Shown: positions 15,822 through 42,765 of the stretch, in pieces | How the letters are laid out: each line of letters opens with the position of its first letter | Position numbering within the stretch: the stretch's first letter is position 1 | Assembly: GCA_964407105.1 (NCBI GenBank) | Contig: CAYOUG010000001.1 | Coordinates: 164,273 to 228,272 of the forward strand | DNA: 64,000 nt | Direction of reading: 5' to 3' | Source of the DNA: an uncultured Candidatus Saccharibacteria bacterium | Lineage (GTDB): Bacteria > Patescibacteriota > Minisyncoccia > Phycocordibacterales > CALRHW01 | The notes under the pieces: generated by a model | Database searches by the model: none | Seen by the model: the letters and a program-made list of their open reading frames with translations, nothing else | What the model was told of the DNA's origin: nothing | Made by a program: the position numbers and the translations under genes

Positions 15822-15827
15822 CAAGTA

Positions 15828-25505: not shown

Positions 25506-25859
25506 CTATGACGTACCCACTATTGTCATAATACCTTGTGCTGGCCACTGATCTAAACATTCACCCTCATCCCACGTACCGCAAGATGTTGGTACTCCAG
25601 AATGAAGCCCCAAAACCCAATTTCCGGGAGTAAAAATATTTCCATTCGCAAAAAGTGTAGATAATCCTGGAAAAAACAAAAATGCACCACCAACCGGAGG
25701 AGAAACCTGAATCCACAACGCACCAGGACACGTGCATACTCGCACATAAGTAATCATTCCACCAAATGGCAAAAAAGCTTCCGCTTTTTTATACACAAAC
25801 ATACTACTACTCAAAATAACCAAAACGAAAACCATAAAAGCTAAAATTTTTCTCTTCAT
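25506..25859 (-). CDS. small secreted hypothetical protein
   Basis: Signal anchor MKRKILAFMVFVLVIL; Cys-containing mature part. Confidence 0.4.
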   Translation of the reverse strand: MKRKILAFMVFVLVILSSSMFVYKKAEAFLPFGGMITYVRVCTCPGALWIQVSPPVGGAFLFFPGLSTLFANGNIFTPGNWVLGLHSGVPTSCGTWDEGECLDQWPAQGIMTIVGTS

Positions 25860-25860
25860 A

Positions 25861-26949
25861 TTAGATGACGTTAAGTATAGCAGGTGAATTTTTATCACTC
25901 ACACCATTGATGTTAACAACATAAATAAAGATTTTTAATCCACTCACACCATTACCACCATTATCTTTAAAAATATCACCCAGATTTGGAAGGTTCGATG
26001 GGGCTTCTAAAGTAAAAGTGAGGGTTTTTCCATCAGAAGAAGAAAGATTTGAAAAATTACCAAAAGAAGTATGAACACTATTTCCTGTTGGTGTAAAATT
26101 TTCACCTAAAATAGTAATTTGAGAACCGATAGACGCAGAGATAGGGGAGATAGAAATAATCTTTGGAACAAAACCGCTATTGGCCGTAACTACAAAATAT
26201 GAGTTACTTTCACTTTTTCCTTTTGAATTACTTACCTCAATATCATAAATACCAACCGGAATTGTTTGTGGAATTGTAAAAACAATGTTGTTTGCATTTA
26301 CTGAAGAAACGTTGCTCACAATATGTGGTCCAAAATGGATACTATTGCCTGTCGACAAAAATCCCGTACCAGTAAGAGAAAGGGTACTGCCATAACCTCC
26401 ACTGTTTGCAGACATAAATGCAAGCTGAACTTTTGAATTATCTGCTTCTGTAAACAAACTAAATAAATCAAATTGATTTAAGCTTTGTGTGGGTTGTGTT
26501 GGTTGTGTAGATTCCTGAACCGGCAAAACATTTTCGTAAGCTGTTCCGGATTGTGCTGGTGCAGTTTTTGGAAAACCATCATTTGTGCTTATTGAAGAGG
26601 GTGAATTAAGCACTGCGCGAGTCGATGGTCCAACAAAACCGGTACCAACACCCAAACCAAGGGGGGTTAAAATTTGATCTGCATGTTCATTTTGAAAAGC
26701 AATTACAGCCTGTTTTGTGGCTGGACCAAAATACATTGTTTCATTACCCAAAGAACCCGAACCGCTTTGCGCTACAACAGTTTTTTCATTTGTGTTTAAT
26801 GTTTTTTGAAGCTCCAAAACATCAGGGCCCACATCTCCAAAAGATAAATTACGAACAAAAGTATAAGCAAAAGATGTTTTTGGTAAAAACGAAAACACAG
26901 AAAAAATAAAAATGAGTGTGTAAACAGAAATACAAAAATATCGATACAT
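25861..26949 (-). CDS. secreted protein with a peptidoglycan-binding (PG_binding_1-like) domain and IPT/TIG-like repeats
   Basis: Signal peptide; FGDVGPDVLELQKTLN..YFGPATKQAVIAFQ matches the PG-binding pattern; two Ig-like repeats with GTGF..GNS.HFG. Confidence 0.55.
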   Translation of the reverse strand: MYRYFCISVYTLIFIFSVFSFLPKTSFAYTFVRNLSFGDVGPDVLELQKTLNTNEKTVVAQSGSGSLGNETMYFGPATKQAVIAFQNEHADQILTPLGLGVGTGFVGPSTRAVLNSPSSISTNDGFPKTAPAQSGTAYENVLPVQESTQPTQPTQSLNQFDLFSLFTEADNSKVQLAFMSANSGGYGSTLSLTGTGFLSTGNSIHFGPHIVSNVSSVNANNIVFTIPQTIPVGIYDIEVSNSKGKSESNSYFVVTANSGFVPKIISISPISASIGSQITILGENFTPTGNSVHTSFGNFSNLSSSDGKTLTFTLEAPSNLPNLGDIFKDNGGNGVSGLKIFIYVVNINGVSDKNSPAILNVI

Positions 26950-27039
26950 ACAGACATTGTACGGCAAAAAATACGCCTTCACAATCAATACATTTCGGTC
27001 ACACAATCTGATATACTAAAGAAAATTTCCATTAAAATC

Positions 27040-28035
27040 ATGAAATTACCAAGCATTAAAATAATACTCGTTGCGATCACATGTGTTGCGGTAGTAAGTG
27101 CCATTTATGTTTTAATACAAAAAAATAATAAAACAGAAATAAATAGTGTAACCACAAACACACTTTCTCCAGAATTAGTAAGTTCAAGCGTAAAGGGTTC
27201 AGCTTACATCGACAGCGACAAAGACGGTTTGTACGATTGGGAAGAAATAATCTGGAAAACCGACCCGCTGAACCCAGATACAGATCAAGATGGCATTCTC
27301 GATGGGGAAGATGTAAAAAAAACACCATCATTTGATACCGCGACACAAAAACTTACAAAAACAGATGGTGTAAATGATATAAACACACAAACAGACTCAC
27401 CACAAAACCTAACCCTCACAGACAAAATCGCCCAAGCAGCATTTACACAGTACGCACTTTTAAAACAAAGTGGTAAAAAAATTACTGCAGATCAAGCGCA
27501 AGAAATTGCACACAACATTATTGCAAATCAACCGTTGGTGGAGGGCTTGAAAAAATTTACTGAATTAAATATTCCAAACAAAGTAGAAAATTCTTCGGAC
27601 AATATTTATACATACGGCAACGAGGTGTGGGATATTATGGTAAAAGACACGCCAAAAAATGTAAAACTTGAAAATGAATACACTATTCTACTTACCGCAC
27701 TTCAAAAAGAAGATGAGAAATATCTTGAAAAACTTGATCCAATTATTTTGGGTTATCAAAACACAATAAAAGATTTGCTTTCAATGAAGGTGCCCGCAGG
27801 CGCAGTTTCTGCTCATTTAAATTTTGTAAACAATATGAATGGCGTTCTTGCTTTCATTGAAGACATGCGCGCGTATTATAAAGATACTGCACGTGGTTTG
27901 GGTGCTGTAACGTACTATGGTGGGCAGGTGATAGAACTTCGTGCATCGCTTACACAATTAGTAGAATACTTTTCATCACAGGGTGTAGAATATGTGGAGG
28001 GCGAGAGTGGCTACCTACTAACGCATAGTATATAA
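27040..28035 (+). CDS. membrane-anchored protein with DxDxDG calcium-binding-like repeats
   Basis: N-terminal TM helix; DSDKDGLYDWEE and DPLNPDTDQDGILDGED thrombospondin-type-3-like motifs; first gene of a tight operon. Confidence 0.5.
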   Translation: MKLPSIKIILVAITCVAVVSAIYVLIQKNNKTEINSVTTNTLSPELVSSSVKGSAYIDSDKDGLYDWEEIIWKTDPLNPDTDQDGILDGEDVKKTPSFDTATQKLTKTDGVNDINTQTDSPQNLTLTDKIAQAAFTQYALLKQSGKKITADQAQEIAHNIIANQPLVEGLKKFTELNIPNKVENSSDNIYTYGNEVWDIMVKDTPKNVKLENEYTILLTALQKEDEKYLEKLDPIILGYQNTIKDLLSMKVPAGAVSAHLNFVNNMNGVLAFIEDMRAYYKDTARGLGAVTYYGGQVIELRASLTQLVEYFSSQGVEYVEGESGYLLTHSI

Positions 28036-28038
28036 TTA

Positions 28039-29013
28039 ATGGCAAAAGACATTACTGTGTCATCAATTTATTCTAAAAAATTATTTTTTACTGTTTTCTC
28101 TCTCGCTCTGTCTATCGGCTTTTTCATTCCTTTACATGTAAAGGCGCAAGTTGCTGTGCCTGTTGTTGAGCTTGTAGGATCTCCACTCCTAACCAATACG
28201 ATATTTATAATGGCAAGCACCGACGATATCGCTTGGAACACAGCGTATCTTGCTGCAAAAGAAACAGGAGTTGCAAAATATAAAAATATACCAATTACCG
28301 GAGTGCAAGTCGCTGCCGGAAGTACACTGAGCGCTGATTCAATTGCGACTACATTCCTCAAGCCACTCATCCGCAACATGACCAACTCGCTTGTACAATG
28401 GATAAACAGCGGTTTTCAAGGATCACCACTTTTTGTAAGCGATCCAGCAAAGTTTTTTATTGGTGTTGCAGATAGAATAGCGGGAAGTTTTATAGAGGGT
28501 TCAGATCTCGCATTTCTCTGTTCGCCTTTTTCTTTAAAAATAAGACTCGCGCTCAATTTAAATTATTCAGCACGTTTTCGTGATGAAATTGGTTGTACAC
28601 TTACAGATGTAGTAGAAAATATAGATAATTTTCAAAAAGATTTTACTCAGGGTGGATGGGATGCGTGGTTTAGCATGACACAAAATCCACAAAACAACGC
28701 ACAAGGTGCATATCTTTCTTCTCAAAGTCAGCTTGATATCCGTCTTGCAAGTGCGCTTGGTATAGAAGTGGCTCAGCTTGACTGGGGTCAAGGTTTTCTA
28801 TCTTTCAGAGACTGTGAAATTTATGATCAGACTGGAAAATGTATAAAATACGGCCCCACAAAAACACCCGGAACTGTTATCAATGGTCAGTTACAAGACG
28901 CACTAGGTACAGATCTTTCACAGCTCGAGCTTGCCGATGAATTTGATGAAATTGTAGCGGCGCTAGTAGGTCAGCTATTTAGCAAAATCCAACAGGGTTT
29001 GATCAACTCATAA
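28039..29013 (+). CDS. secreted hypothetical protein (operon member)
   Basis: Signal peptide ..IPLHVKAQVAV; start is 4 nt after the previous stop. Confidence 0.5.
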   Translation: MAKDITVSSIYSKKLFFTVFSLALSIGFFIPLHVKAQVAVPVVELVGSPLLTNTIFIMASTDDIAWNTAYLAAKETGVAKYKNIPITGVQVAAGSTLSADSIATTFLKPLIRNMTNSLVQWINSGFQGSPLFVSDPAKFFIGVADRIAGSFIEGSDLAFLCSPFSLKIRLALNLNYSARFRDEIGCTLTDVVENIDNFQKDFTQGGWDAWFSMTQNPQNNAQGAYLSSQSQLDIRLASALGIEVAQLDWGQGFLSFRDCEIYDQTGKCIKYGPTKTPGTVINGQLQDALGTDLSQLELADEFDEIVAALVGQLFSKIQQGLINS

Positions 29014-29014
29014 T

Positions 29015-31114
29015 ATGAAACGATTTTTTAGAAACAAAAAAACACGCTTCATCTTTGCAACACTTGTTGTGGCATTTTTCATATGTATTCCTCTAGTTAC
29101 TTTCGCAGAGGTCACTTCACCTTCATCACCAGCACCGGGGTGGTTTGGAACCGAAATTCTTGCTGCAGTAACTGGAGTTTTTAATAGACTCCTAGCCCTT
29201 GCTGGCGCATTTGCCATGATGCTCACAAGTTGGATTTTGTGGGCTTCCGGATCACTTCTTACTGAAGTATTGAAATACACCGTTCTGAACATGTCACAAA
29301 ATATTAATTCTATTAGCGCTATAAATGTTGCGTGGACAGTATTCAGAGATCTCGCAAACATGTTTTTCATTTTTATACTTCTTTATGCGGCCATCGGCAC
29401 CATTTTAGGTTTAAGCGGCGTCAATGCAAAAAAAATGGTCGTCAATATAGTTATTATTGCGCTTCTTATAAATTTCAGCTTATTTTTCACAAAAATAATT
29501 ATCGACGCATCAAACATCGTTACTATTGGTTTTTACAATAGAATAACCTCATCTATAGGAGAAAATGGTGGTCTTGCCACACCTTTTATGAACAAAATGG
29601 GGATAGTGGGTATGTTTAGTATTGATGGAATAATGTCTGATAGTGGTGCCTTATCATCAAACAAAACCCTCACAGAAATAGCGCTCACTGGAATAATGGG
29701 CTCCATATTTATTCTTGTAACCGCTTTCGTCTTTTTTGCTGCCAACATTATGTTTATTGGCCGATTTGTGATTTTGATATTTTTAATGATACTTTCTCCG
29801 CTTGCTTTTGCTGCAATGGCATTACCGAAAGATAAATATTCATCTGATTGGTGGAAGTCCTTACTTGATCAAGCGCTTTTTGCACCAGCCTTTTTAGCGA
29901 TGATGTATGCCACCTTACTCATTGTAGAGGGCTTAAATATACCAAATGCTGGTTTTGCAAAAGTATTTGTCCCTGGAGAAGATGGTAAGGCACCAGATCT
30001 TGCTATGGTACAGGTTCTTATGAATTACATAATTATCATAGTAATGATAATAGCCTGTCTTATTATTGCTAAAAAATTTGGCGCACACGGATCAGGTGAA
30101 ATGATCAAGCGTGGCCAAAAACTCCGTGGTTGGGCACAAGGTAAGGTAGGGAGGGGGGCTTTGCGAGGAACGGGTCTTGCTGCCCTTGATAGAAAATTTG
30201 CAGATTCAGATTTTGCAAAAACACGAACAGGTAACATTTTTCGCAGTATGACAACCGGCGCAATTACCAATGCAAAATTTGGCTCTGATACTTCAATACA
30301 AAAAGTAGATAAGGCAAACAAAGATCTTGATAAAAAATACAATGAGGGTGTAATGAAAGGTGTGGAGAAAAAATTTGAAAAAAGTTTGCCAGAACAACGA
30401 AAAAACTATATTGGCGATTTAAACAAAAAAATTGATGAATCTGGTACAAAAAAGTTTGAGACCGAAGCACAACTTATGACAAAACGAGAAGAGCTCGAAG
30501 ATGCTATCGCAAATGGAAAAGCAGTACGACCAGAAAGAGAACTACCTAAACTAGAACGAGAAATAACCGAAAGAGAAGGGCAGTTGCGTCGAGCTTCATC
30601 GGGCGGGCTAGCCATTCCTAAGAGTGAAATTGATCGTGTCAATACAGAAATTGCAGAAAGAAGAGAGAAGGTAAGAGTTACAAAAGAAATACAAAAACAA
30701 ATTGAAAATTTAAAAAAAGAGTCAGACACCACACAAAAAGAAATTAGTAGTTTTGAACAAGAAAAGAAAACTACTCAATCTAATATGGATGGTGGCTTTG
30801 TCGCTACAAAAAGCGAAAAGGGTCGTTGGTTAAATCAGGCATACGAAGAAAAAGCTAAAAGTCTCGAATCCTTGGGACCAACACTAGAAGCTGGTAAGAA
30901 AATGTTCCCCGGAACATCAAGAGTTATCGGTGCTCTTGGTAAACTTCGTCCAACATATCTAGATTTTGAAATGGGTCTAACAGCAAAAAAAGATGTCGTA
31001 AAAGAGTTGCGCAAAAAAACACAAGGTGGCGGTAAAGAAAAGGATATAATAAATCAACTTAAAGAATCTCTAAAAAATGCAGGTGAATTGGAAGATGGGG
31101 GAGAAAAAAAATAA
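29015..31114 (+). CDS. VirB6/TrbL-like polytopic membrane protein with a long charged coiled-coil C-terminus
   Basis: About 360-aa N-terminal region with six to eight TM helices then a roughly 340-aa K/E-rich coiled coil; topology and position upstream of PrgI-like/VirB4 genes. Confidence 0.5.
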   Translation: MKRFFRNKKTRFIFATLVVAFFICIPLVTFAEVTSPSSPAPGWFGTEILAAVTGVFNRLLALAGAFAMMLTSWILWASGSLLTEVLKYTVLNMSQNINSISAINVAWTVFRDLANMFFIFILLYAAIGTILGLSGVNAKKMVVNIVIIALLINFSLFFTKIIIDASNIVTIGFYNRITSSIGENGGLATPFMNKMGIVGMFSIDGIMSDSGALSSNKTLTEIALTGIMGSIFILVTAFVFFAANIMFIGRFVILIFLMILSPLAFAAMALPKDKYSSDWWKSLLDQALFAPAFLAMMYATLLIVEGLNIPNAGFAKVFVPGEDGKAPDLAMVQVLMNYIIIIVMIIACLIIAKKFGAHGSGEMIKRGQKLRGWAQGKVGRGALRGTGLAALDRKFADSDFAKTRTGNIFRSMTTGAITNAKFGSDTSIQKVDKANKDLDKKYNEGVMKGVEKKFEKSLPEQRKNYIGDLNKKIDESGTKKFETEAQLMTKREELEDAIANGKAVRPERELPKLEREITEREGQLRRASSGGLAIPKSEIDRVNTEIAERREKVRVTKEIQKQIENLKKESDTTQKEISSFEQEKKTTQSNMDGGFVATKSEKGRWLNQAYEEKAKSLESLGPTLEAGKKMFPGTSRVIGALGKLRPTYLDFEMGLTAKKDVVKELRKKTQGGGKEKDIINQLKESLKNAGELEDGGEKK

Positions 31115-31120
31115 AAAACA

Positions 31121-31870
31121 ATGGATGACTTTCAAATAAAAAAAATAATACAAGAACAGTGGGGTATACTTCCTGAAAACATTCAAAAACTTATTCTGTC
31201 CTCGGAATTTGATTCAAAAATCGAACAAATTTCTAGAAAATACAATCTTCTTGGAAATCAAACTGTTAACCTAAAAAATGAGATTGTTTTTGTGCTTCTT
31301 GGTCTTGTTCATCTTATGGATTTTACCCAAAATCTAGAGCATGAACTTGCAATTCCAAAAGAACAGGCACGCTTACTAGCTCAAGAGGTTGGCGCACAGA
31401 TATTTGCCAATGTAAAAGAATCTCTCAGGGAACTTGGCAAAACACTCGAATTGGAAAATGCTCAAGATTCTCAGAATTCATTGGGTACAGACCAGCAAAA
31501 ACCAACAAATCAAAACGTTCCACCCCCAATCGCAACGGTACAAGGAGTACACATGCAAAAAGAATCGCTCACCCCAGAAACACAAGACAGTATAATTACT
31601 GCTAGCGCGAATGTAGAAAAGGAAGAGGGGAACGTGCAAACAGGTATTGTAGAAGACGTTGCATCATTAAACAAAGAAACCTTACTTAAAGAAATAGAAT
31701 CTCCAGCTCTCATTACCGCCCACGCATCAACCCCAGAATACGAACCAACAATAATAGATAAAAAACTTAGTGGCATAATGAAAGTGCCACGCGAAGAGGT
31801 GCGTGTAAATGTAGATGCAAACACACCAAGCTATAAAGGTACCGATCCATACCGTGAACCTTTAGAATAA
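31121..31870 (+). CDS. soluble acidic hypothetical protein (operon member)
   Basis: No TM helix; lies between the VirB6-like and PrgI-like genes. Confidence 0.45.
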   Translation: MDDFQIKKIIQEQWGILPENIQKLILSSEFDSKIEQISRKYNLLGNQTVNLKNEIVFVLLGLVHLMDFTQNLEHELAIPKEQARLLAQEVGAQIFANVKESLRELGKTLELENAQDSQNSLGTDQQKPTNQNVPPPIATVQGVHMQKESLTPETQDSIITASANVEKEEGNVQTGIVEDVASLNKETLLKEIESPALITAHASTPEYEPTIIDKKLSGIMKVPREEVRVNVDANTPSYKGTDPYREPLE

Positions 31871-31874
31871 AATT

Positions 31875-32300
31875 ATGAGATTTCAAGTCCCACAATTTAC
31901 TGACGTTGAAGATAAAATTTTTGGCGCACTCACTTTTAAGCAGTTTATATATCTTGCTGGAAGCGCTGGAGCATGCGTCATTTTGTACTACATCATTCCG
32001 TTCAAAATTATTTCTTTCATGTTTATGTTTCCGATAATCGCTTTCGGCCTTGCTTTAGCATTTTACAAAGTAAACAATAAACCTTTTATTCGTGTAGTAG
32101 AAGCATTTTTTAAATATTCAGTCACAAGCAAACTATATATTTGGAAACATGAACCCAAAAAAATAACGGCAATGTCTACTCCAAAAGAATTTTCGTCATC
32201 TTTTTTACCAAAACTTTCAGAAAGTAAGCTAAAAGATCTCACCTGGACACTTGACGTTACAGAAAATATAAACAAAAAGGTTCCTTCTGATTTTAAATAA
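31875..32300 (+). CDS. PrgI/VirB3-like small membrane protein
   Basis: 141 aa with two central TM helices; immediately precedes VirB4 as in Gram-positive-type T4SS. Confidence 0.5.
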   Translation: MRFQVPQFTDVEDKIFGALTFKQFIYLAGSAGACVILYYIIPFKIISFMFMFPIIAFGLALAFYKVNNKPFIRVVEAFFKYSVTSKLYIWKHEPKKITAMSTPKEFSSSFLPKLSESKLKDLTWTLDVTENINKKVPSDFK

Positions 32301-32327
32301 AAGGAATATAGGATATAATTTCTAAAT

Positions 32328-32972
32328 ATGGCAACCAATGCACGAGCTTCTCAAGAATTTGTGCCGATTAATGACATTCAAAATGGCATTGTCACTTTAA
32401 AAGACGGCTCATTACGTGCTGTACTTATGGCATCTTCTGTAAATTTTTCTCTTAAATCAGAAGAAGAGCGTGCAGCCATCATGTTTCAATTTCAAGATTT
32501 TTTAAACTCTCTTGATTTCACTGTACAAATTTTTATTCAATCACGACGTCTAGACATTCGTCCATACATTAATCTTCTTGAAGAACGCAAGAAAGCGCAA
32601 GTAAACGATCTCATGAAAATTCAGGTGGAAGAATATATTGGTTTTATCAAAAACTTTACCGACAACACCAATATTATGACTAAACATTTTTTCATAATCG
32701 TGCCGTATTCTCCTGCAATTCTTCAAAAGGGTGGCAATAATCCCGTCACTGGTTTATTTAAAAATAAAAAAAATGATGAAGAGATAAAAATTAATACACA
32801 AGAGGCATTCGAGGAACGACGCACTCAGCTAGAACAACGTTTGGCGGTGGTGGAGCAGGGGCTTGTCCGCTCAGGAGTACGTGTAGTACAGCTTGGAACA
32901 GAAGAAATCGTCGAACTTTTTTACAAAATTTTCAATCCCGGCGAAGCAGAGAAACCAATTCACATTCAATAA
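32328..32972 (+). CDS. VirB4-family N-terminal domain (separate ORF)
   Basis: EFVPINDIQNGIVTLKDGSLRAVLMASSVNFSLKSEEER resembles the VirB4/TrsE/TcpF N-terminus; its stop is 1 nt before the ATG of the ATPase ORF, which is in a different frame. Confidence 0.6.
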   Translation: MATNARASQEFVPINDIQNGIVTLKDGSLRAVLMASSVNFSLKSEEERAAIMFQFQDFLNSLDFTVQIFIQSRRLDIRPYINLLEERKKAQVNDLMKIQVEEYIGFIKNFTDNTNIMTKHFFIIVPYSPAILQKGGNNPVTGLFKNKKNDEEIKINTQEAFEERRTQLEQRLAVVEQGLVRSGVRVVQLGTEEIVELFYKIFNPGEAEKPIHIQ

Positions 32973-32973
32973 T

Positions 32974-34788
32974 ATGAGCTTTTTAGAAAATATATTTGGT
33001 GGTAAAAAGAAAGAGGAAACAGTAGGAATGCTTCCTCAGGAAATTTATCAAGCGCAAACACTTGAATTAAAAGATATTATCGCACCAAGCGCCCTAAAAA
33101 TTGCTCCAAAAGAACTAAATTTAGGAGATAAAATTGTACGAACATTTTTTGTTATTTCATACCCGCGTTTTCTTGGTGAAAGTTGGTTTGCGCCAATTAT
33201 TAATCTTGACCGTGTTTTTGATGTCTCTATTTTTATACATCCAGTAGACACAGTGAAAGTTTTGAGACAATTTCAAAAAAAGGTGGCTGAGGTGCAAAGT
33301 CAGATTCATGAACGAGAAGACAAGGGAATGGTGCGTGACCCAATGCTTGATACCGCATATCAAGATCTCGAAAATCTTCGTGATAGTTTACAGCAAGCAC
33401 AAGAAAAACTTTTTGATGTTGGTTTGTACATTTCCATTTATGCAGAAAGTGATGCTGAACTCGATAAAATCGAATCAGAAATACGATCCATTCTTGAATC
33501 AAAGCTTGTTTACGTAAAACCCGCACTTTTCCAACAAGAACAAGGCTATAAAAGCGTGCTTCCTATTGGTACGGACATTCTTGAGGTGCATTCAAAGCTC
33601 AATTCTTCACCGCTTTCAAGTCTTTTTCCTTTTATTTCTTTTGATCTTACGTCTGATAAAGGAATTTTGTATGGTATCAATCGCCACAATTCAAGTCTTG
33701 TACTTTTTGATCGTTTCTCACTTGAAAATTACAACTCTATTACTTTCGCAAAGTCTGGTTCTGGAAAATCTTACGCAACAAAGCTAGAAATTTTGCGTAC
33801 CCTTATGTTTGATACCGAAGTTATAGTTATTGACCCTGAACGAGAATATGAATATATGGCTGAGGCTGTTGGTGGAAGATACTTTAAAATTTCCCTCAAC
33901 TCCGAACACCACATTAATCCATTTGATCTACCCCTTCCAGGAGAGGGTGAGTCTGGAGAAAGCGTGCTTAGAAGTAATATTATCAATCTTGTGGGTCTTT
34001 TTAGGCTTATGCTTGGTGGTATTAGTGCAGAAGAAGACGCAATTATCGACAGAGCAATTACAGAAACATACGCATTAAAAGACATCACGGCCCAGTCTAA
34101 TTTTGCAAATATAGATCCACCACTAATGTCTGATTTCGAGCTTGTGTTGGGGGGAATGGAGGGTGGGGAATCACTAGCGCAACGTCTTACTAAATACACG
34201 AGAGGTACGTGGGCTGGGTTTATCAATCGTCCTACAAATATTGATATTAATAAAAAGTTTATTGTGTTTTCGTTGCGCGACATGGAAGACGAGCTCAAAC
34301 CTATCGCCATGTACATTGTGATGCACTATATTTGGAGTGCAATTCGCAAAGAACTTAAAAAACGCCTCTTGGTAATAGACGAGGCGTGGTGGATGATGAA
34401 ATCCGAAGACACGGCCTCGTTTCTCCTCTCACTCGCTAAACGCGGCCGAAAATATTACCTCGGCCTAGCCACCATCACCCAAGACGTTGACGATTTCCTC
34501 AAGTCTCCATACGGAATGCCGATTATCACCAACTCCTCAATTCAAATTTTACTCAAACAATCTCCAACATCTATAGACAAGCTCCAACAAACATTCAACC
34601 TCACCGACGAAGAAAAATATTTACTCCTTGAAAGCTCGGTAGGAGAGGGAATTTTCTTTGCTGGCCTAAAACACGTCGCAATAAAAATTATTGCATCGTA
34701 TACCGAAGATCAAATCATTACATCCGACCCATCTCAAGTGCTTTCTATTCAACAAGCAAAACGCGATCTGGAACAGTCTCAACAATAA
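32974..34788 (+). CDS. VirB4/TrbE-family T4SS ATPase (ATPase domain)
   Basis: Walker A GSGKSYAT, Walker B LLVIDEAWWMM and the conserved C-terminal region. Confidence 0.8.
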   Translation: MSFLENIFGGKKKEETVGMLPQEIYQAQTLELKDIIAPSALKIAPKELNLGDKIVRTFFVISYPRFLGESWFAPIINLDRVFDVSIFIHPVDTVKVLRQFQKKVAEVQSQIHEREDKGMVRDPMLDTAYQDLENLRDSLQQAQEKLFDVGLYISIYAESDAELDKIESEIRSILESKLVYVKPALFQQEQGYKSVLPIGTDILEVHSKLNSSPLSSLFPFISFDLTSDKGILYGINRHNSSLVLFDRFSLENYNSITFAKSGSGKSYATKLEILRTLMFDTEVIVIDPEREYEYMAEAVGGRYFKISLNSEHHINPFDLPLPGEGESGESVLRSNIINLVGLFRLMLGGISAEEDAIIDRAITETYALKDITAQSNFANIDPPLMSDFELVLGGMEGGESLAQRLTKYTRGTWAGFINRPTNIDINKKFIVFSLRDMEDELKPIAMYIVMHYIWSAIRKELKKRLLVIDEAWWMMKSEDTASFLLSLAKRGRKYYLGLATITQDVDDFLKSPYGMPIITNSSIQILLKQSPTSIDKLQQTFNLTDEEKYLLLESSVGEGIFFAGLKHVAIKIIASYTEDQIITSDPSQVLSIQQAKRDLEQSQQ

Positions 34789-34795
34789 AAACTTT

Positions 34796-35224
34796 ATGGA
34801 ATCAAAACTCACCACCCTAACAGCCGGACTAATGATCACAGTAGCTGTGATTTTTGATATTATTCAAGCACTTCTTGATTTGCTTCACTTTATACCGCTT
34901 GTGGGAAACATATTTGCAATTATTTCCACCTCACTGCTTTCTGTTTTCGCGTGGCTCACATTCTATTTGTGGATGAAAATAAAAGGAATAGATTTTGCAA
35001 GCCCAAAACGCTCGCTTAGTCTTGGTGGTGGTTTTATTTTTGAACTTATTCCAATATTAAATGCTCTTCCGGGATGGACACTTGCTGTAATACTTATTAT
35101 TGGAAGTATGCGTGCTGAAGAATTGATTGCAAAAACCACAGGTATAAACGTAAATATTTCTTCTGGAGTATCGCCGATACCAAATCCAACACAAGCTATT
35201 AAAAACACACCATTGAACAAATAG
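34796..35224 (+). CDS. small polytopic membrane protein (operon member)
   Basis: Three to four TM helices; 8 nt after the VirB4 stop. Confidence 0.45.
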   Translation: MESKLTTLTAGLMITVAVIFDIIQALLDLLHFIPLVGNIFAIISTSLLSVFAWLTFYLWMKIKGIDFASPKRSLSLGGGFIFELIPILNALPGWTLAVILIIGSMRAEELIAKTTGINVNISSGVSPIPNPTQAIKNTPLNK

Positions 35225-35241
35225 TGTATCGTGCTAAAATT

Positions 35242-36264
35242 ATGAAGTACTCTTTGTATATGCTCCATTCTTCTATAAAAATAATATGTGTGACACTTGT
35301 TTTGTTTTTTGCATGCACACTAAGTGCGTCCGCTCAATTGGGCAATCCATCAGCAGAAAGCGTGCAGTTTTTTATTACACCAGAAAATCCTGGATCAAAT
35401 GAACTTGTAAAAATCAGGGTGGAAAGTTTTACATCAGACCTAAATTCAAAAGAAATTACTTGGTCACTAAATGATAAAATCCAAAAAAAAGCGGTGGGCG
35501 ACAAAAATTTTGAGTTTACTACCGGCCCACTTGGAAGTGTCTCTAAAATAACCTTTTCTACAAACACAATAACTAAAAGTGTAACCCTACGCCCAGTAGA
35601 TCTTTTTATAACTTGGCAAACCAACACCTACACACCACCTTTTTATAAAGGAAAAGCAGTGTACACCAACCAAAGCTCAATACAGTTTGTGGCACTTCCT
35701 ATGTTTGTTGGATCAAATGGAAAAACAATAGATCCAAAAAATTTAATATATAAATGGACAAGAGACGACTCCGTACTCAACAACGAATCTGGCTATGGAA
35801 AACAGGTCCTTTCTACTAGCGGTGGAACACTCGCAAAACCAATATTAATTAATCTTGAGGTTACGAGTGCCGACGGACTACTTAAAGCGAAAAGAGAAAT
35901 CGAGGTTGAAGGAAATCTTCCAAGAATTATATTTTACGAAAATCATCCACTCTACGGAATCACGTATCGCAATGCATTACCAGACATCTTTACACTCACA
36001 AGTAAAGAAATAAGTCTTGTCGCCGCACCTTATTTTTTTGATATAAGTGGAAAATTAGACTCAAATCTTTCATATGTATGGAAAATGAATGGGGAAGTCA
36101 TAGAAAATCAAGAAAATCCATCAACACTTACACTTCGAAGACCTGAGGGTTCTGCTGGTGGCAAAGCAAATATATCTCTTATGACTTCTCACCTTGCAAA
36201 AATTATTCAATTTACAAACAAATCTTTAGATATTAATTTTGAAGCTCTAAATATTTCCGATTAA
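35242..36264 (+). CDS. secreted protein with three Ig-like beta-rich repeats
   Basis: Signal peptide; three roughly 100-aa repeats. Confidence 0.5.
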   Translation: MKYSLYMLHSSIKIICVTLVLFFACTLSASAQLGNPSAESVQFFITPENPGSNELVKIRVESFTSDLNSKEITWSLNDKIQKKAVGDKNFEFTTGPLGSVSKITFSTNTITKSVTLRPVDLFITWQTNTYTPPFYKGKAVYTNQSSIQFVALPMFVGSNGKTIDPKNLIYKWTRDDSVLNNESGYGKQVLSTSGGTLAKPILINLEVTSADGLLKAKREIEVEGNLPRIIFYENHPLYGITYRNALPDIFTLTSKEISLVAAPYFFDISGKLDSNLSYVWKMNGEVIENQENPSTLTLRRPEGSAGGKANISLMTSHLAKIIQFTNKSLDINFEALNISD

Positions 36265-36269
36265 AATAT

Positions 36270-37115
36270 ATGATAAAAAACGCAAAAAAATATCTTGGTT
36301 TTATAATAATTTTGATAACTATTTTAAGTATACATGGTGCTTTTTTAACAAAAACGACTTTTGCAGAGCTTGAATCTGGTGGCACCACAGGAGGTTTTAC
36401 AAATTACAAACCCCTTATTCCACTTCCAATTGGACCAAACGGTAGCAACGAAACACCTACAGAACTTTCAAAATACCTACCTGCAATGTTTCAATTTTTT
36501 ATAGGTATTGCTGGAGTACTTGCTGTGGTAATGATCGTAATTGGTGGAATACAATATATGTCTACTGATGCGGTCTATGGTAAAAGTGCTGGAAAAGAAA
36601 AAATCGCTCAAGCACTTGGTGGACTTTTGCTCGCTATTGTTGCTTGGCTTATTCTTTATTCCATCAACCCAAATCTTTTAAATACAGTTCTTGGTGGGCC
36701 AAATACACAAATGGCCAGTTCAACACCAACAAACCCAATACCACACACAGCAAGAGTAACGTATCACGTACAAAACACATATGGACCACCAACAACCGAG
36801 TGTAAAAGTACATATCCATCACCACAAGCATGTGCACAATCACTTACACAACTAGAAGCATCATATCCAACGCCACCATATGCCAACGTATCTGTTGGTT
36901 GTGATGTTGAGTGCAATCCAACACCTCCACCCCCACCATATTCACTTATGGTTACCTATCATGTACAGGGCATACCAGGACCACCAAAAGTAGCCTGTTA
37001 CCCTTATACTGGTCCCGTAGAATGTCAAACAGCATCTGAAAACTTTGATCAATCAGACCAACCAACATGGATTATTCACAACGAAATTTGTACTCAAGAG
37101 TGTACAGAACAATAA
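36270..37115 (+). CDS. VirB2/TrbC-like pilin candidate with a C-terminal tandem Cys-containing repeat
   Basis: Long signal peptide then two hydrophobic helices separated by a short loop (LPAMFQFFIGIAGVLAVVMIVIGG / KIAQALGGLLLAIVAWLILY); C-terminal repeats RVTYHVQNTYGPPTTEC and MVTYHVQGIPGPPKVAC. Confidence 0.5.
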   Translation: MIKNAKKYLGFIIILITILSIHGAFLTKTTFAELESGGTTGGFTNYKPLIPLPIGPNGSNETPTELSKYLPAMFQFFIGIAGVLAVVMIVIGGIQYMSTDAVYGKSAGKEKIAQALGGLLLAIVAWLILYSINPNLLNTVLGGPNTQMASSTPTNPIPHTARVTYHVQNTYGPPTTECKSTYPSPQACAQSLTQLEASYPTPPYANVSVGCDVECNPTPPPPPYSLMVTYHVQGIPGPPKVACYPYTGPVECQTASENFDQSDQPTWIIHNEICTQECTEQ

Positions 37116-37118
37116 ACC

Positions 37119-38357
37119 ATGCTTAAAAAAATTATTATCGTCATAGCTATTATTATCTTACTCGCTTTAGGCGCATTTACTTATCTTTATTTCACATCAC
37201 CAGAAAGCCTTAACTCAATCACAAGCAATGTGGGAATAAACGTGTCAGACTTTTTTCCTTTTGGACAAGAGCCCACAACACCAACAAACACCACAAACAA
37301 TTCTTCGGGAGACACCCCTCCAAACACAACGCCGGCCCAATTACGACAAATATATTCTTCTCCTGTATCTGGTGGGCAGTTTTTCAATATAAACAACAAC
37401 ACCGCTGTGCGTTTTGTGGAACAGTCAACAGGCAACGTATATGAAGCGAATACAGAAAATACGGCCATAGAACGCATCACCAACACCACAATTCCAAAAG
37501 TAACAGAAGCTACTTTTGTAACAAAAGATAGTGTGCTTTTGCGATTTTTACGAGACGATAGTGATCTTATTGAAACTGTATACGGCACAATAAGCACAAC
37601 AACATCTACAAGCACGGTGCAAAGTGAGTTTGCAGACCTTCAAACAACATTTCTCTTTCCAAACATCAAAGACCTTGTTGTTTCTCCTAAAAAAGATAAG
37701 GTTTTTTACATAAATCAATTTTCGATTGGCGCTCTAGGTACCATTGCAAGTCCTAATGGTTCAAATAAGACTGTGGCGTTTGAATCTCCAATTCGTGAGT
37801 GGAACACGCAGTGGCCGACCACCACCACACTAGCACTCACCACAGCGCCAAGTGCACAGGTATCAGGATATTTATATTTCGTAAACACCACCACAGGCAC
37901 GCAACAAAAAATATTAGCAAATATTCCAGGACTAACCACTCTCACAAACACAAACACTTCGAGCGTGCTCTACACAAAAAATAATCTCAAAGGAAGTTTT
38001 TCCCTAAATTTACTTAACACAAAAACAGGAACATCAACCCTTCTTTCTTTTGGTCAAACATTACCAGAAAAATGTGTGTGGAGTAAAAAAAATGTAAACG
38101 TAATGTATTGTGCGGTGCCAAAAGTTATACCAAAAGGGGAATATCCTGATATTTGGTATATGGGTCTTGTTTCTTTTAGTGACAAACTCTGGCGTATCAA
38201 CACAGAAACCAACGAAACAGATATGCTTGTCGATCTTGAAAGTGTGTCTGGACGAACACTCGATGCTATAAAACTTTCTTTGGATACAAATGAAAACTAT
38301 ATTCTGTTTACAAACAAAGCTGACTCAACCTTGTGGAGTTTCGCACTAAATAAATAA
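37119..38357 (+). CDS. membrane-anchored Thr/Asn-rich extracytoplasmic protein (last gene of the operon)
   Basis: N-terminal TM helix, low-complexity TPTNTTNNSSGDTPPNTTP linker, beta-rich C-terminal domain. Confidence 0.5.
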   Translation: MLKKIIIVIAIIILLALGAFTYLYFTSPESLNSITSNVGINVSDFFPFGQEPTTPTNTTNNSSGDTPPNTTPAQLRQIYSSPVSGGQFFNINNNTAVRFVEQSTGNVYEANTENTAIERITNTTIPKVTEATFVTKDSVLLRFLRDDSDLIETVYGTISTTTSTSTVQSEFADLQTTFLFPNIKDLVVSPKKDKVFYINQFSIGALGTIASPNGSNKTVAFESPIREWNTQWPTTTTLALTTAPSAQVSGYLYFVNTTTGTQQKILANIPGLTTLTNTNTSSVLYTKNNLKGSFSLNLLNTKTGTSTLLSFGQTLPEKCVWSKKNVNVMYCAVPKVIPKGEYPDIWYMGLVSFSDKLWRINTETNETDMLVDLESVSGRTLDAIKLSLDTNENYILFTNKADSTLWSFALNK

Positions 38358-38401: not shown

Positions 38402-39181
38402 TTATTTCTTAATGTTTCTTTTGAGTACCAATTCTTGTCCGATAGTAAATAAATTACTCGTAATCCAATAAAGTGCGATTGCTGCGGATATTCCATAAGA
38501 GATGAATCCGGCGATAATCGGGAATACATAGATCATTTGTACGCGCATACTACGTGCAAGATCGTGTTTAAATGAATCTGTATTGGTTTTGCCCTGTGTC
38601 TCAGTTTTTTGCTGTGTTTTTGGAGCCATTAATTTTGCTTGAAAAAACGTAGAAATAGCCACAAGCACAGCAAGCACAATACTTTTTGAAGAAATATCTA
38701 TAAGTCCCAAAAACATCATATTAATATAATTGGGAATACCCACAAAACCATATAAAAGTTCTTTGTTTACTGTTGGTAAACCTGAATGCCAAAATATTCT
38801 ATAAAGGGCAAAAATTATTGGTAATTGAATAAATATAAGCAAAATACTCATAAAAGGCCGCACACCTCTTTCTTTGTAAAGTTGCATCGTCTTTCGAGCT
38901 TGTTCTTGTTTATCATCCTTAAACTGTTCACGAATTATTTGAAGCTCTGGTTCTATTTGCTTCATCTGAATCTGTGTTGTGACGGCTTTTTTGGAAAGAG
39001 GGAATAGAATAAGTTTGATTATGATTGTAAACAAAATTACCGCAATTCCAGCATCCACCCAAGGAATTAGATTAATCAACAAAATAAGTCCGTTATAAAG
39101 AGGCTGGTAAACAATTGTGTGGTATATATTTGATATCATCAGGTTATTGTAACTTACGGTGGAAGCATTTTCAAACCACAC
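38402..39181 (-). CDS. yidC: membrane protein insertase YidC/Oxa1 family (short form)
   Basis: Five TM helices and the conserved ..KQIEPELQIIREQFKDDKQE..MQLYKERGVRPF.. region. Confidence 0.85.
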   Translation of the reverse strand: MWFENASTVSYNNLMISNIYHTIVYQPLYNGLILLINLIPWVDAGIAVILFTIIIKLILFPLSKKAVTTQIQMKQIEPELQIIREQFKDDKQEQARKTMQLYKERGVRPFMSILLIFIQLPIIFALYRIFWHSGLPTVNKELLYGFVGIPNYINMMFLGLIDISSKSIVLAVLVAISTFFQAKLMAPKTQQKTETQGKTNTDSFKHDLARSMRVQMIYVFPIIAGFISYGISAAIALYWITSNLFTIGQELVLKRNIKK

Positions 39182-39510
39182 TACATAAGACGAGCTTTGT
39201 GAAAAAGTTCCTCTATTTCAGACTGTAAAACAGCGAAGGTTATTTTATTAGCTCCTTGTTTTGCAGAAATAACAGTATGTGATGTTTTTTTTATTTGTGG
39301 CAATAGCACACGTATTACCGCATACACACGTCTACGCACTCTGTTTCTGTCTACAGCGCTCTGTGCAACCTTTTTTGAAACAAGAGCGGCATAACCCTCT
39401 TTGGAGGCCGAGATTGTTCGTAATAAGAAGTGGGGGGAATTTTGCAATAAACCCAAAGAAAGAATGCGTCCAAAAGAATCTCTAGGGATCCTTTTTTGTT
39501 TAGGTAGCAT
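39181..39510 (-). CDS. rnpA: ribonuclease P protein component
   Basis: 109 aa, basic; RNR motif region AVDRNRVRRRVYAV; located between rpmH and yidC. Confidence 0.8.
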   Translation of the reverse strand: MLPKQKRIPRDSFGRILSLGLLQNSPHFLLRTISASKEGYAALVSKKVAQSAVDRNRVRRRVYAVIRVLLPQIKKTSHTVISAKQGANKITFAVLQSEIEELFHKARLM

Positions 39511-39538
39511 ATATAAAAGGAGATTATGCTCTCAGGCC

Positions 39539-39673
39539 TTAAACCGTGAGTCTAGCTCGACCTTTTGCTCGTCTTCGATTGACGGTTTTTTTACCACCAG
39601 CCGTTCGTTTTCGCTTAAGAAAACCGTGTGATTTAGCGCGTTTTCGTTTTTTAGGATTATATGTAAAAGACAT
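39539..39673 (-). CDS. rpmH: 50S ribosomal protein L34
   Basis: Hand translation MSFTYNPKKRKRAKSHGFLKRKRTAGGKKTVNRRRAKGRARLTV (44 aa); not in the ORF table because it is shorter than 60 aa. Confidence 0.9.
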   Translation of the reverse strand: MSFTYNPKKRKRAKSHGFLKRKRTAGGKKTVNRRRAKGRARLTV

Positions 39674-39817: not shown

Positions 39818-41173
39818 ATGGATAGTAAAAAAATCTGGGAGAGTGTACTTGTGGATATAGAAATTAATGTTTCTAAGGCAAATTTCAATACTTGGTTCAA
39901 AGATACTTATATATATAAATTTGAAGATGGGGTGGTGTATTTGAGTGTGCCAAATAATTTTGTAAAGGAGTGGCTTCTTAAAAAATTTCACTCATATATA
40001 TTAAAGGCTTTGCGCGGACTATCAGAAAACGTTCGGTCGCTTGACTATATAGTAAGTAGGGGAGATATAAAGAAAAAAGAACCTGATCACATAAAAGGAT
40101 TAAACACTTTAGCTGAAAGCACAAACGAACTACCTTTAAATGAATTTTATATCAACAAAGACGATAATTTGAATCCAAAATACACCTTTGATTCTTTTAT
40201 TATCGGCCCATTCAACGAACTTGCTCACGCAGCAGCGCAAGCGATTATTAAAAAACCAGGAATTGTTTATAATCCACTTTTTGTTTACGGCAACACCGGA
40301 CACGGAAAAACCCACCTTATACAAGCAATAGGTAACCACATGAAACATACTTATCCTGAACGTAAGATACATTACCTTACATCAGAAAAATTTGCTGTTG
40401 ATTATATAAATTCAGTTCAAAATCAAAAAGTAAACAATTTCAAAGAAAAATATAGAAAATATGACGTTCTTATAATGGACGATATTCAATTTCTTTCAAA
40501 TAAAGAGAGGACTCAGGAAGAATTATTCCATTTGTTTAATTTTCTCTACGACAACAATAAGCAAATTATTTTTTCTTCAGACAAACATCCAAACTATATT
40601 CCACAACTCGAGGAACGTCTTAAATCGCGCTTTGGTGCTGGTATGATAGTAGACATTCCTCCTCCAGACGAAGAATCACGCGCAGCTATTTTGACTGCAA
40701 AACTAAAACAACACAACCTAGAACTACCAAAAGAGGTGCTTGCTTATCTTGCACAAACACTTTCTACAAACATTAGAGAGCTTGAGGGTGCTTTAAATGG
40801 GGTAATGATGCAAATGCAACTAAAACAAAAAGAAGTTACTCTTAATGATGTAAAAAACCTTCTTAAAAACAACACAAAACCAAAGAAAAATCTTTCACCA
40901 AAAGAAATAATAAAAATAATCGCTGATTTTTATAATATCAATGAAGAAAGTATTTATGAAAAAACAAGAAAAAAGGAAATAATAAAACCACGCCAAATTA
41001 CTATGTATATTTTACGAGAAGATTTTAATATCTCTTACCCATCAATAGGGGAGAAAATGGGAGGGCGAGACCACACTACAGTTATTCATTCGTGTGAAAA
41101 AATAAAAAACGACCTTAAATTAAATACTGACTTGGCGCAGGAGATAAATCAGATTAGATCAATGTTTGTTTGA
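39818..41173 (+). CDS. dnaA: chromosomal replication initiator protein DnaA
   Basis: AAA+ Walker A GNTGHGKTHL, Walker B LIMDDIQF, sensor motifs and C-terminal DNA-binding domain. Confidence 0.95.
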   Translation: MDSKKIWESVLVDIEINVSKANFNTWFKDTYIYKFEDGVVYLSVPNNFVKEWLLKKFHSYILKALRGLSENVRSLDYIVSRGDIKKKEPDHIKGLNTLAESTNELPLNEFYINKDDNLNPKYTFDSFIIGPFNELAHAAAQAIIKKPGIVYNPLFVYGNTGHGKTHLIQAIGNHMKHTYPERKIHYLTSEKFAVDYINSVQNQKVNNFKEKYRKYDVLIMDDIQFLSNKERTQEELFHLFNFLYDNNKQIIFSSDKHPNYIPQLEERLKSRFGAGMIVDIPPPDEESRAAILTAKLKQHNLELPKEVLAYLAQTLSTNIRELEGALNGVMMQMQLKQKEVTLNDVKNLLKNNTKPKKNLSPKEIIKIIADFYNINEESIYEKTRKKEIIKPRQITMYILREDFNISYPSIGEKMGGRDHTTVIHSCEKIKNDLKLNTDLAQEINQIRSMFV

Positions 41174-41402
41174 TGTGTAAAACCTTGTGTATATAGTGTG
41201 GATAGGGATGAATAAGTGTGGATAAAAAAACAAATTATTTTTCAAAAACTACTTTATGAACAACCTATTAAAAACAATCCACAGTTCAATAATTGAAAAT
41301 AAAAAAAATACGGCTAATTATCGAGGTTTAAAAAGTTATCCAGATATCCACATCCCGTATAATAGTAATAGTATTTATATATAATATATACATACAACAT
41401 AT
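41174..41402. promoter_or_regulatory. candidate oriC: DnaA-box cluster plus an AT-rich unwinding element between dnaA and dnaN
   Basis: TGTGGATAG (41197), TGTGGATAA (41217), CAATCCACA (41275), TTATCCAGA (41336), ATATCCACA (41345), then a pure A/T tract at 41366-41400. Confidence 0.7.
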
Positions 41403-42503: not shown

Positions 42504-42508
42504 ATTTT

Positions 42509-42763
42509 ATGGAAAATATCACTTCTTTTTTACAAAAATTCAAAAAAATACTTTCTTCTCAAGGTGCTCACGCGTATGTATTTATTGAAATTGTAAAAGA
42601 CGAGCTTGGTATTAAGTTACAAAAAAAAGATGTGAGTGTTCGAGGTAATGTGATTTATGTTCGTGTTTCTCCAGCATCAAAAAATACAATATTTTTAAAA
42701 AAGAAGAAAATACTCGATCTACTCACAGAACAGGCTGGTCGCCACGTCACCGATATTCGCTAA
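42509..42763 (+). CDS. small conserved protein after dnaN, possibly DciA/DUF721-like
   Basis: 84 aa; context only (genes of this size after dnaN are often DUF721). Confidence 0.3.
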   Translation: MENITSFLQKFKKILSSQGAHAYVFIEIVKDELGIKLQKKDVSVRGNVIYVRVSPASKNTIFLKKKKILDLLTEQAGRHVTDIR

Positions 42764-42765
42764 GG

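Follow-up and report, generated by a model that had tools for sequence, protein, structure and literature searches.

The closest described relatives of the locus reported here are the type IV secretion systems (T4SSs) of the Patescibacteria. McLean et al. (2020) noted VirB4, VirB6 and VirB2 across the candidate phyla radiation (CPR), and a survey of 3,035 Patescibacteria genomes by Quinonero-Coronel et al. (2025, Microb Genom; PMC12102498) reports VirB4 in 2,417 of them, as a clade nested in the monoderm mating-pair formation (MPF) class FATA. In the same survey this VirB4 is accompanied by TrsD, the most abundant T4SS component in the group, and by PrgI/VirB3, VirB6 and VirB2-like pilins (among them Pfam PF18895 and PF04956); relaxases are almost absent, and VirD4-like genes are usually remote from virB4. 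The cluster of Paceibacteria and Microgenomatia is placed beside dnaA, dnaN, rnpA, ksgA and rpmH, and the published phylogeny points to vertical inheritance at class level with rare transfer. The only version with functional data is that of Ca. Southlakia epibionticum, for which Wang et al. (2023, Cell; PMC10633639) report by transposon sequencing that the cluster, including its pilins, is essential for epibiotic growth and describe no recognizable coupling or relaxase protein. In a 2025 review the system figures as a new type of T4SS that may have pili, and a pilus conduit has been proposed (PMC12857230). Here we describe an eleven-gene operon at positions 27040–38357 of a 64-kb window (the whole stretch of DNA analysed, 64,000 nt of contig CAYOUG010000001.1) and find that it is a typical member of this published Patescibacteria T4SS.

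The eleven open reading frames (ORFs), named g01 to g11, are co-directional and, in the ORF list, lie on the + strand between ksgA and the yidC-rnpA-rpmH/dnaA-dnaN genes:

g01, 27040–28035, + strand, 331 aa: surface protein with an N-terminal membrane anchor and two TSP3-like DxDxDG repeats followed by a helical domain
g02, 28039–29013, + strand, 324 aa: mainly helical protein, secreted or anchored by its N-terminus, in which Cys, Trp and Gly positions are conserved
g03, 29015–31114, + strand, 699 aa: VirB6/TrbL-like polytopic protein (residues 1–357) with a 342-aa charged, coiled-coil-like C-terminal tail
g04, 31121–31870, + strand, 249 aa: acidic, soluble, fast-evolving protein
g05, 31875–32300, + strand, 141 aa: PrgI/VirB3-type small membrane protein with two transmembrane segments
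g06, 32328–32972, + strand, 214 aa: TrsD/TraC-like protein, homologous to the VirB4 N-terminal domain and encoded as a separate gene
g07, 32974–34788, + strand, 604 aa: VirB4-family ATPase of the monoderm CD1110 or MPF-FATA-like type
g08, 34796–35224, + strand, 142 aa: small polytopic membrane protein with three to four transmembrane segments
g09, 35224–36264, + strand, 346 aa (340 aa if it starts at ATG 35242): secreted or anchored, beta-rich, probably Ig-like protein
g10, 36270–37115, + strand, 281 aa: VirB2-like T4SS pilin with two C-terminal Cys-rich repeats
g11, 37119–38357, + strand, 412 aa: surface protein rich in Thr, anchored by its N-terminus and beta-rich in its C-terminal domain

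With refined starts, the gaps from g01 to g11 are 3, 1, 6, 4, 27, 1, 7, −1 (or 17), 5 and 3 nt; a preliminary description of this DNA, made from its letters and ORF list, had given a range of −1 to 28 nt for the eleven + strand genes, which the measured −1 to 27 nt matches, with the coordinates unchanged. The start of the VirB4 gene g07 was refined to ATG 32974, 1 nt past the stop of the 214-aa g06, and ATG 34796 is the most likely start of g08. The 604-aa g07 and the 281-aa g10 are exact NCBI proteins, and an independent gene caller, applied to another assembly of the same sequence (L081), returned products of 331, 324, 699, 249, 141 and 214 aa followed by VirB4. A promoter and terminator scan of the operon gave counts equal to those of shuffled sequence. 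From the spacing and the synteny given below, we infer that the eleven genes are co-transcribed.

The ATPase core of the system is encoded by g05, g06 and g07. The g07 product matches the NCBIfam model conju_CD1110 (VirB4-like conjugal transfer ATPase, CD1110 family) with 377.7 bits, above the cut-off of 325, as well as Pfam P-loop_TraG (3.9e-28) and AAA_10, and its Walker A (AKSGSGKS) and Walker B (LLVIDE) motifs are intact. It is 79–93% identical to VirB4 of 80 Paceibacteria/Parcubacteria species genomes, and this near-identity to members of the Patescibacteria VirB4 clade indicates that it belongs there. Pfam PrgI (PF12666) recognized g05 with 40.4 bits (cut-off 27), a hit that is also precomputed on L081, and so bore out its reading as a PrgI/VirB3-like protein; with its two transmembrane segments and its place directly upstream of g06, it would by analogy serve as the membrane anchor of VirB4. 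The g06 product matched the NCBIfam models VirB4_plasma (2.4e-9), the CD1110 family (2.6e-6) and TrsD/TraD NF041427 (2.8e-5), all below curated cut-offs and all at N-terminal model positions, and carries a precomputed Pfam PF26593 (TraC-like) assignment on L081.

A VirB4 split into two ORFs, as the preliminary description put it, could be a frameshifted pseudogene. Two ORFs are indeed present, but no gene has been broken: in 77 of 80 related loci g06 and g07 form distinct ORFs, with gaps of variable length between them, and so represent a genuine two-gene arrangement of TrsD-like protein and VirB4. The pseudogene was ruled out by these separate ORFs, the differing gaps and the independent gene call.

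The second core part is the pilin. Pfam T4SS_pilin (PF18895) matched g10 with 28.9 bits (cut-off 26.6), TrbC/VirB2 matched weakly and the NCBIfam Mbov_0395 pilin-like model gave 2.2e-6; nine orthologues also match PF18895. The protein consists of a signal peptide, a core with two transmembrane segments (TM1 and TM2; residues ~70–130), a Pro/Thr linker and two Cys-rich repeats of ~57 aa (residues 161–217 and 225–281) that align with each other at E = 5e-6 in BLASTP, so that both halves of its first reading, a VirB2-like pilin with a C-terminal tandem repeat, were upheld. Conserved through the related loci is the core: the signal peptide, 'Y.PL.PLP', TM1, 'GGIQYMSTDA..GK', TM2 and 'INP.LL'.

The third is the membrane platform. 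In g03 a signal-like segment precedes six or more hydrophobic ones. Modelled with AlphaFold2, residues 1–400 form an all-helical membrane bundle with a predicted local distance difference test (pLDDT) score of 82, and the best Foldseek matches of this model in the PDB were chains of the R388 TrwI/VirB6 stalk subunit (8rtd_L, 8rt9_F and 7o3v_F; probability 1.0, E from 3e-3 to 1e-1, TM-scores 0.34/0.45), with Legionella DotA third and unrelated families scoring nowhere near. Pfam TrbL was matched by 4 of 46 orthologues (best 1.6e-4), and several homologues with 38–42% identity carry precomputed PF04610/PF19590 assignments and the NCBI name 'type IV secretion system protein'. VirB6 homology of g03 is thus well supported, although not proven at the level of its own sequence, in agreement with the VirB6/TrbL-like polytopic protein with a tail of about 340 aa that had been proposed. 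The 342-aa tail consists of 38% K/E/R/D and matches only coiled-coil proteins, weakly; 'extended VirB6' proteins with large hydrophilic extensions are a known category in the 2025 review.

Together, the profile and fold searches support VirB3/PrgI, VirB4, a VirB6-like protein and a VirB2-like pilin, and with them the initial view of a minimal T4SS-like apparatus. Among the scanned ORFs of at least 200 aa in the 64-kb window, Pfam and NCBIfam detected no relaxase, VirD4 or VirB11, as had been noted at first. The statement that the system has no coupling protein holds within the window but goes too far beyond it, for according to the published surveys most genomes of Patescibacteria do contain VirD4-like genes, well away from virB4. 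No VirB8-like protein (PrgL/TraM/TcpC) or VirB1-like hydrolase was matched in Pfam, NCBIfam or PDB sequence searches of all operon products, with fold models made for g02 and g03. With VirB2, VirB3, VirB4 (plus TrsD) and VirB6 present and the substrate-recruiting and DNA-processing parts missing, the set points to a VirB4-powered, VirB6-based channel or pilus in a monoderm envelope.

In these respects the locus agrees with the Patescibacteria-clade T4SS of the 2025 survey (PMC12102498) as its text describes it: VirB4, a separate TrsD-like protein, PrgI/VirB3, VirB6 and a PF18895 pilin, no relaxase or adjacent coupling protein, the same taxon and the same site beside ksgA, rnpA, rpmH, dnaA and dnaN, with nothing essential different. 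The proposal that the composition is undescribed was thus not sustained, as the component set, the pilins, the lack of a relaxase and the dnaA-side position were published between 2020 and 2025. What may be under-described are the six accessory proteins without a family (g01, g02, g04, g08, g09 and g11) and the variable extension of the Paceibacteria pilin, neither of which was found in the consulted sections of PMC12102498. The T4SS of S. epibionticum (SEML1_0006–0019), as presented by Wang et al., is likewise origin-proximal, resembles Gram-positive conjugative T4SSs, has predicted pilins and lacks a recognizable coupling or relaxase protein. It differs in class (Saccharimonadia), in having six short divergent pilins where the operon described here has one with a long extension, and in peptidase and lysozyme genes directly downstream of virB4, of which this operon has none.

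Conjugation systems share part of this set. The MPF-FATA systems (pGO1/pSK41 Trs, pCF10 Prg, pIP501 Tra and C. difficile CTn2) share the CD1110-type VirB4, the PrgI-type VirB3, a separate TrsD-like protein (as in pGO1), a VirB6-like protein and the absence of an outer-membrane core complex, but they are mobile elements with a relaxase, oriT, a coupling protein, a VirB1-type hydrolase and a VirB8-like protein, and they have no VirB2 pilins; the operon is chromosomal, fixed in position, equipped with a pilin and devoid of DNA-processing parts in the window. With the MPF-T systems (R388, pKM101 and Agrobacterium VirB) it shares homologues or fold-level relatives of VirB2, VirB3, VirB4 and VirB6. 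It differs from them in that VirB5, B7, B8, B9, B10 and B11 were not detected, in its monoderm envelope, in the 342-aa charged tail of its VirB6 relative and in the large C-terminal domain of its pilin.

Gene-order conservation in related genomes, a check that the preliminary description had called for, was determined in relatives collected by a g07 scan of one genome per GTDB species. More than 564 were returned, and the best 80 (L001–L080) were analysed; all are metagenome-assembled genomes of Paceibacteria/Parcubacteria (Zambryskibacteria, Taylorbacteria, Campbellbacteria and others). The order uvrD-ksgA-...-g01..g11-yidC-rnpA-dnaA-dnaN is kept in every one of the 45 loci whose 10-kb flanks are complete, which places the operon far beyond chance. 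Searches found seven genes (g02, g03, g05, g06, g07, g09 and g11) in all 45 of these loci, g10 in 44, g01 in 34, g08 in 22 and g04 in 18. The low numbers for g04 and g08 reflect divergence more than loss, because the position itself is still filled by an ORF, for g04 in 61 of 61 loci (median 219 aa) and for g08 in 56 of 68.

Median identity to the window was 82% for VirB4, 62% for g06, 53% for PrgI and 27–40% for the surface or membrane parts; in the same genomes it was 63% for DnaA, 53% for DnaN, 54% for UvrD and 50% for YidC. As the loci were selected by VirB4 similarity, the absolute VirB4 identity is inflated; the within-genome comparison holds despite this selection and shows that VirB4 is at least as constrained as the replication initiator DnaA, which would lend indirect support to a requirement of the system for epibiotic growth. 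A conserved cytoplasmic and membrane core with fast-evolving surface-exposed parts is the pattern expected of a host-contact organelle.

These data also bear on the origin of the locus. The operon might be an integrative and conjugative element (ICE), remnant or functional, that inserted near the origin, and thus mobile-element DNA: the closest curated VirB4 model is that of CD1110, a family of Clostridioides conjugative transposons, PrgI and TrsD belong to families of conjugation systems, and a tyrosine recombinase gene lies 14 kb upstream. Against this stand a chromosomal position and an order of genes that are identical in 45 of 45 species, a VirB4 more conserved than DnaA in the same genomes, an operon G+C content (0.36–0.39) equal to that of the flanks and the vertical, class-level inheritance in the published phylogeny (PMC12102498). 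No relaxase, coupling protein, integrase or repeats were found flanking the operon, and the only recombinase in the window is the distant, Xer-like one, with housekeeping genes in between. Synteny and composition all but rule out an ICE remnant, and the mobile-element origin as a whole is very improbable.

We consider it highly probable that the operon encodes the relaxase-less, pilin-bearing T4SS of Patescibacteria, derived from monoderm conjugation machinery whose DNA-processing part was lost or never present. Several points weigh against this conclusion. Co-transcription of the eleven genes is presumptive; g03 itself has no Pfam TrbL match at E ≤ 0.1, and its fold match is modest; no VirB8-like, VirB5-like or VirB1-like part was identified in the operon; and a VirD4-like gene may lie elsewhere in the genome, outside the window. 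The ~150-aa globular C-terminal extension of the pilin may make VirB2-like polymerization doubtful. A pilus has never been seen for the Patescibacteria system, the Paceibacteria T4SS being known from its genes, and a PNAS perspective calls the function of the Saccharibacteria T4SS 'completely unknown'.

Starting from the observed gene content, five core family memberships, synteny and absences in the window, and borrowing assembly order, pilus formation, accessory roles and substrate from other T4SSs, we propose the following model. The VirB4 ATPase g07 and the TrsD-like g06 would be held at the membrane by g05, and this complex would sit under the VirB6-like platform g03. The pilin g10 would be inserted into the membrane by a Sec/YidC route and lose its signal peptide; VirB4 would then extract it from the membrane and, with VirB6 as the base, polymerize it into a VirB2-type tube that crosses the cell wall, the variable C-terminal domain of the pilin being displayed on the exterior. 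The proteins g01, g02, g09 and g11 may make contact with the host cell, as parts that span the wall or adhere. Such a machine would act in the interaction with the host, as a route by which proteins or other macromolecules pass between the epibiont and its host, rather than in conjugation. The initial suggestion of an uptake or contact machine of episymbiotic ultra-small bacteria agrees with the role proposed in the literature. As to cargo and direction of transport, import, export and pure adhesion each receive some weight below, and the remainder falls to an undecided or mixed role.

The accessory proteins bear on export. Each of g01, g02, g09 and g11 has a single N-terminal hydrophobic segment in a composition check. 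For g01 this is one transmembrane segment, followed by TSP3-like DxDxDG repeats of the calcium-binding type at residues 58–90, with weak matches to Pfam TSP3_bac (E = 0.0026; 18 bits, cut-off 25) and to the NCBIfam CglD repeat region (5.6e-5); its counterparts at the same position are 23–46% identical. The g02 product is a core member of a very large family that has no Pfam model: a profile search returned 6,435 clusters (at 50% identity) at E ≤ 1e-3, 3,448 of them at E ≤ 1e-30, with lengths of 235–1170 aa. Some orthologues add C-terminal Ig-like, discoidin, fn3 or InlB-repeat domains of adhesin type, and the large family members that were scanned gave only one GH5 and one TIG match. We see in the g02 family a possible new domain family linked to the T4SS of Patescibacteria. 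Neither fold nor sequence searches matched g02, for which the model was poor (pLDDT 67). That g02 is a VirB5 homologue, an idea suggested by its position upstream of VirB6 and by one orthologue that matches DUF4141, is a speculative reading.

The g09 product starts with one transmembrane or signal segment, and its orthologues match BiPBP_C (13 of 41), Ig_3 (7 of 41) and PKD_3 weakly; the family profile found the Ig-like phage protein Hoc in the PDB (E = 0.0036), and these similarities suggest that it probably consists of repeated Ig-like beta-sandwich domains. In g11, which has a transmembrane segment, Thr makes up 14.8% of residues; orthologues gave only weak matches to DPPIV_N (3 of 40), PD40 (2 of 40) and PG_binding_1 (2 of 40), no PDB sequence was matched, and the C-terminal domain is possibly a beta-propeller. 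Of the remaining two, g04 has 39 D/E against 24 K/R, no transmembrane segment and no Pfam or NCBIfam match. In an alignment of 34 orthologues, g08 has an invariant Asp21 and conserved Pro86 and Pro92; it found no match in Pfam, NCBIfam or the PDB and was rejected as a second divergent pilin by hhalign against the pilin core (probability 1%). The first characterization of these genes therefore stands: a calcium-binding-repeat anchor (g01, by one transmembrane segment, DxDxDG repeats and a weak TSP3 match), an acidic soluble protein (g04), a small membrane protein (g08), an Ig-repeat secreted protein (g09, as a probable assignment) and a Thr-rich surface protein (g11).

An exporter would deliver effectors, possibly the co-encoded secreted proteins themselves, onto or into the host, as the Bordetella Ptl system exports Sec-delivered toxin subunits without a coupling protein. 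N-terminal signal or anchor segments on 5 of the 11 products would suit this, McLean et al. compare the Saccharibacteria system with Ptl, in the words of Wang et al. it 'may instead export proteins' (PMC10633639), and Ptl and Brucella VirB are cited as working without a coupling protein (PMC12102498). However, Pfam, NCBIfam and orthologue scans found no toxin or enzyme domain in g01, g02, g09 or g11, which keep fixed positions like structural parts instead of varying like effectors, and the Sec-dependent arrays of Saccharibacteria were later re-read as VirB2-like pilins (PMC12102498). We regard export as unlikely.

Import is, in our judgement, just as unlikely. An importer, comparable to H. 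pylori ComB or archaeal Ced, would take up DNA or other host macromolecules as a source of nucleotides and building blocks that a reduced genome does not produce. The authors of PMC12102498 and PMC11665869 favour this role because in S. epibionticum the T4SS is essential and ComEC-based competence dispensable. The absence of a relaxase or coupling protein nearby fits import, as does a ComM-like gene 6 kb upstream. VirB4 also shows weak NCBIfam similarity to the archaeal DNA importers CedB (1.8e-8) and CedD, but this lies far below cut-offs and covers only the generic ATPase core. No DNA-binding or nuclease component is recognizable in the operon, the direction of transport is not indicated by the sequence, and for any CPR organism import is a hypothesis.

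The pilin extension bears on adhesion. It differs in every species, with total orthologue lengths of 140–591 aa. Among the forms seen are Cys-rich repeats, a coiled coil, a tandem double pilin (L057:13885–15303) and domains that end in 'HWHVCF'; example orthologues are L007:13436–14401, L009:12286–13128 and L035:12841–14136. Homologues of the Cys-rich repeat of g10 (36732–37112) were found neither in 60 orthologues nor in a large protein database, the latter a weak negative, as the word-indexed search missed even the repeat's own protein, probably through its word filter or the biased composition; as a widespread domain the repeat was rejected on these results. Cell-wall hydrolase domains were likewise rejected for the extensions of the relatives, for which Pfam, NCBIfam and PDB sequence searches matched only the pilin core. 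Motifs such as 'HWHVCF' and 'AESESSFN' resemble those of LAS-type (Zn) peptidases and lytic transglycosylases, a similarity that these searches did not confirm.

A hypervariable, outward-facing extension is what would be expected of a host-specificity determinant, and the operon may encode a pure adhesion organelle, a VirB2-VirB3-VirB4-VirB6 filament that attaches to the host and transports nothing. Its parts are the pilus-biogenesis set of Gram-negative T4SSs, the substrate-recruiting VirD4, VirB11 and relaxase are absent from the window, and g02 orthologues carry adhesin-type domains. Yet Patescibacteria already adhere and move by type IV pili according to the literature, and a PilB ATPase is encoded in the same window; the essentiality of a second adhesion organelle would need explaining, and the filament itself is hypothetical. 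We judge this reading less likely again than import or export. Within the T4SS interpretation that we favour, we put forward one tentative idea, doubtful as it is: a self-contained, pilus-building T4SS in which the six proteins without a family would take the roles of VirB5, VirB8 and VirB1 and the pilin would carry, all along the filament, a hypervariable 'head' that sets host specificity. If true, the pilin would be fused to an adhesin, an arrangement that has been described for no VirB2-type pilus.

The surroundings of the operon are those of a housekeeping, origin-proximal region, as the preliminary description had it, with uvrD and ksgA upstream and yidC-rnpA-rpmH followed by dnaA-dnaN downstream. 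The relevant features are as follows:

12413–13402, − strand: tyrosine recombinase (Phage_integrase 6.9e-45, N-terminal SAM-like domain)
19691–21238: ComM/YifB-like Mg-chelatase-family ATPase, 6 kb upstream of the operon
21235–22314, − strand: protein with LysM and peptidase M23 domains, 5 kb upstream of the operon, with uvrD and ksgA in between
24513: ksgA, upstream of the operon
25506–27006, − strand: two secreted-protein genes, divergent from and immediately upstream of the operon
38402–39673, − strand: yidC, rnpA and rpmH (rpmH 39539–39673), downstream of the operon
39818–41173: dnaA, downstream of the operon
41403: dnaN, downstream of dnaA
50238–51914, − strand: PilB/GspE-type ATPase (Pfam T2SSE 5.8e-116, MshEN domain)

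The cumulative GC skew has its minimum at ~37–41 kb of the window, as would fit a replication origin in that region. G+C content drops to its lowest value in the window (0.287) at 41001–43000, in dnaN and the region beyond, rather than in the spacer upstream of dnaA. Because M23 and LysM domains occur in VirB1-like proteins near virB4 (PMC12102498), the LysM-M23 protein could be the enzyme that opens the cell wall for the T4SS. Of the divergent secreted pair, the 381-aa protein has TIG and peptidoglycan-binding domains and the 130-aa protein has no family; they are kept at this position in 20 and 13 of the 45 related loci, respectively, and may be lineage-specific T4SS accessories or unrelated surface proteins. 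The tyrosine recombinase, with housekeeping genes on both sides, is probably XerC/D-like. ComM/YifB-like proteins are competence-associated in other bacteria. The PilB/GspE-type protein, an ATPase of type IV pili or type II secretion, is encoded 12 kb from the T4SS and also near the origin. Tandem paralogous M14 zinc-carboxypeptidase genes (312 and 294 aa) lie at 14883–16712, preceded by a 460-aa ORF (13449–14831) for which no Pfam match was found. Farther out, the window encodes PBP1, tyrS, ruvB, the PilB-type ATPase, polA, trigger factor, RNase Y and the Xer-like recombinase, among others.

No new type of system is added by this window, which instead offers a clean and complete Paceibacteria example whose gene order does not vary in at least 45 species. 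Few envelope machines are conserved in this huge, mostly uncultivated bacterial radiation; the Patescibacteria T4SS is among them, and it was essential in the one species tested, which makes the system important in itself. The six conserved partners without a family (g01, g02, g04, g08, g09 and g11) provide concrete targets for complex prediction and genetics.

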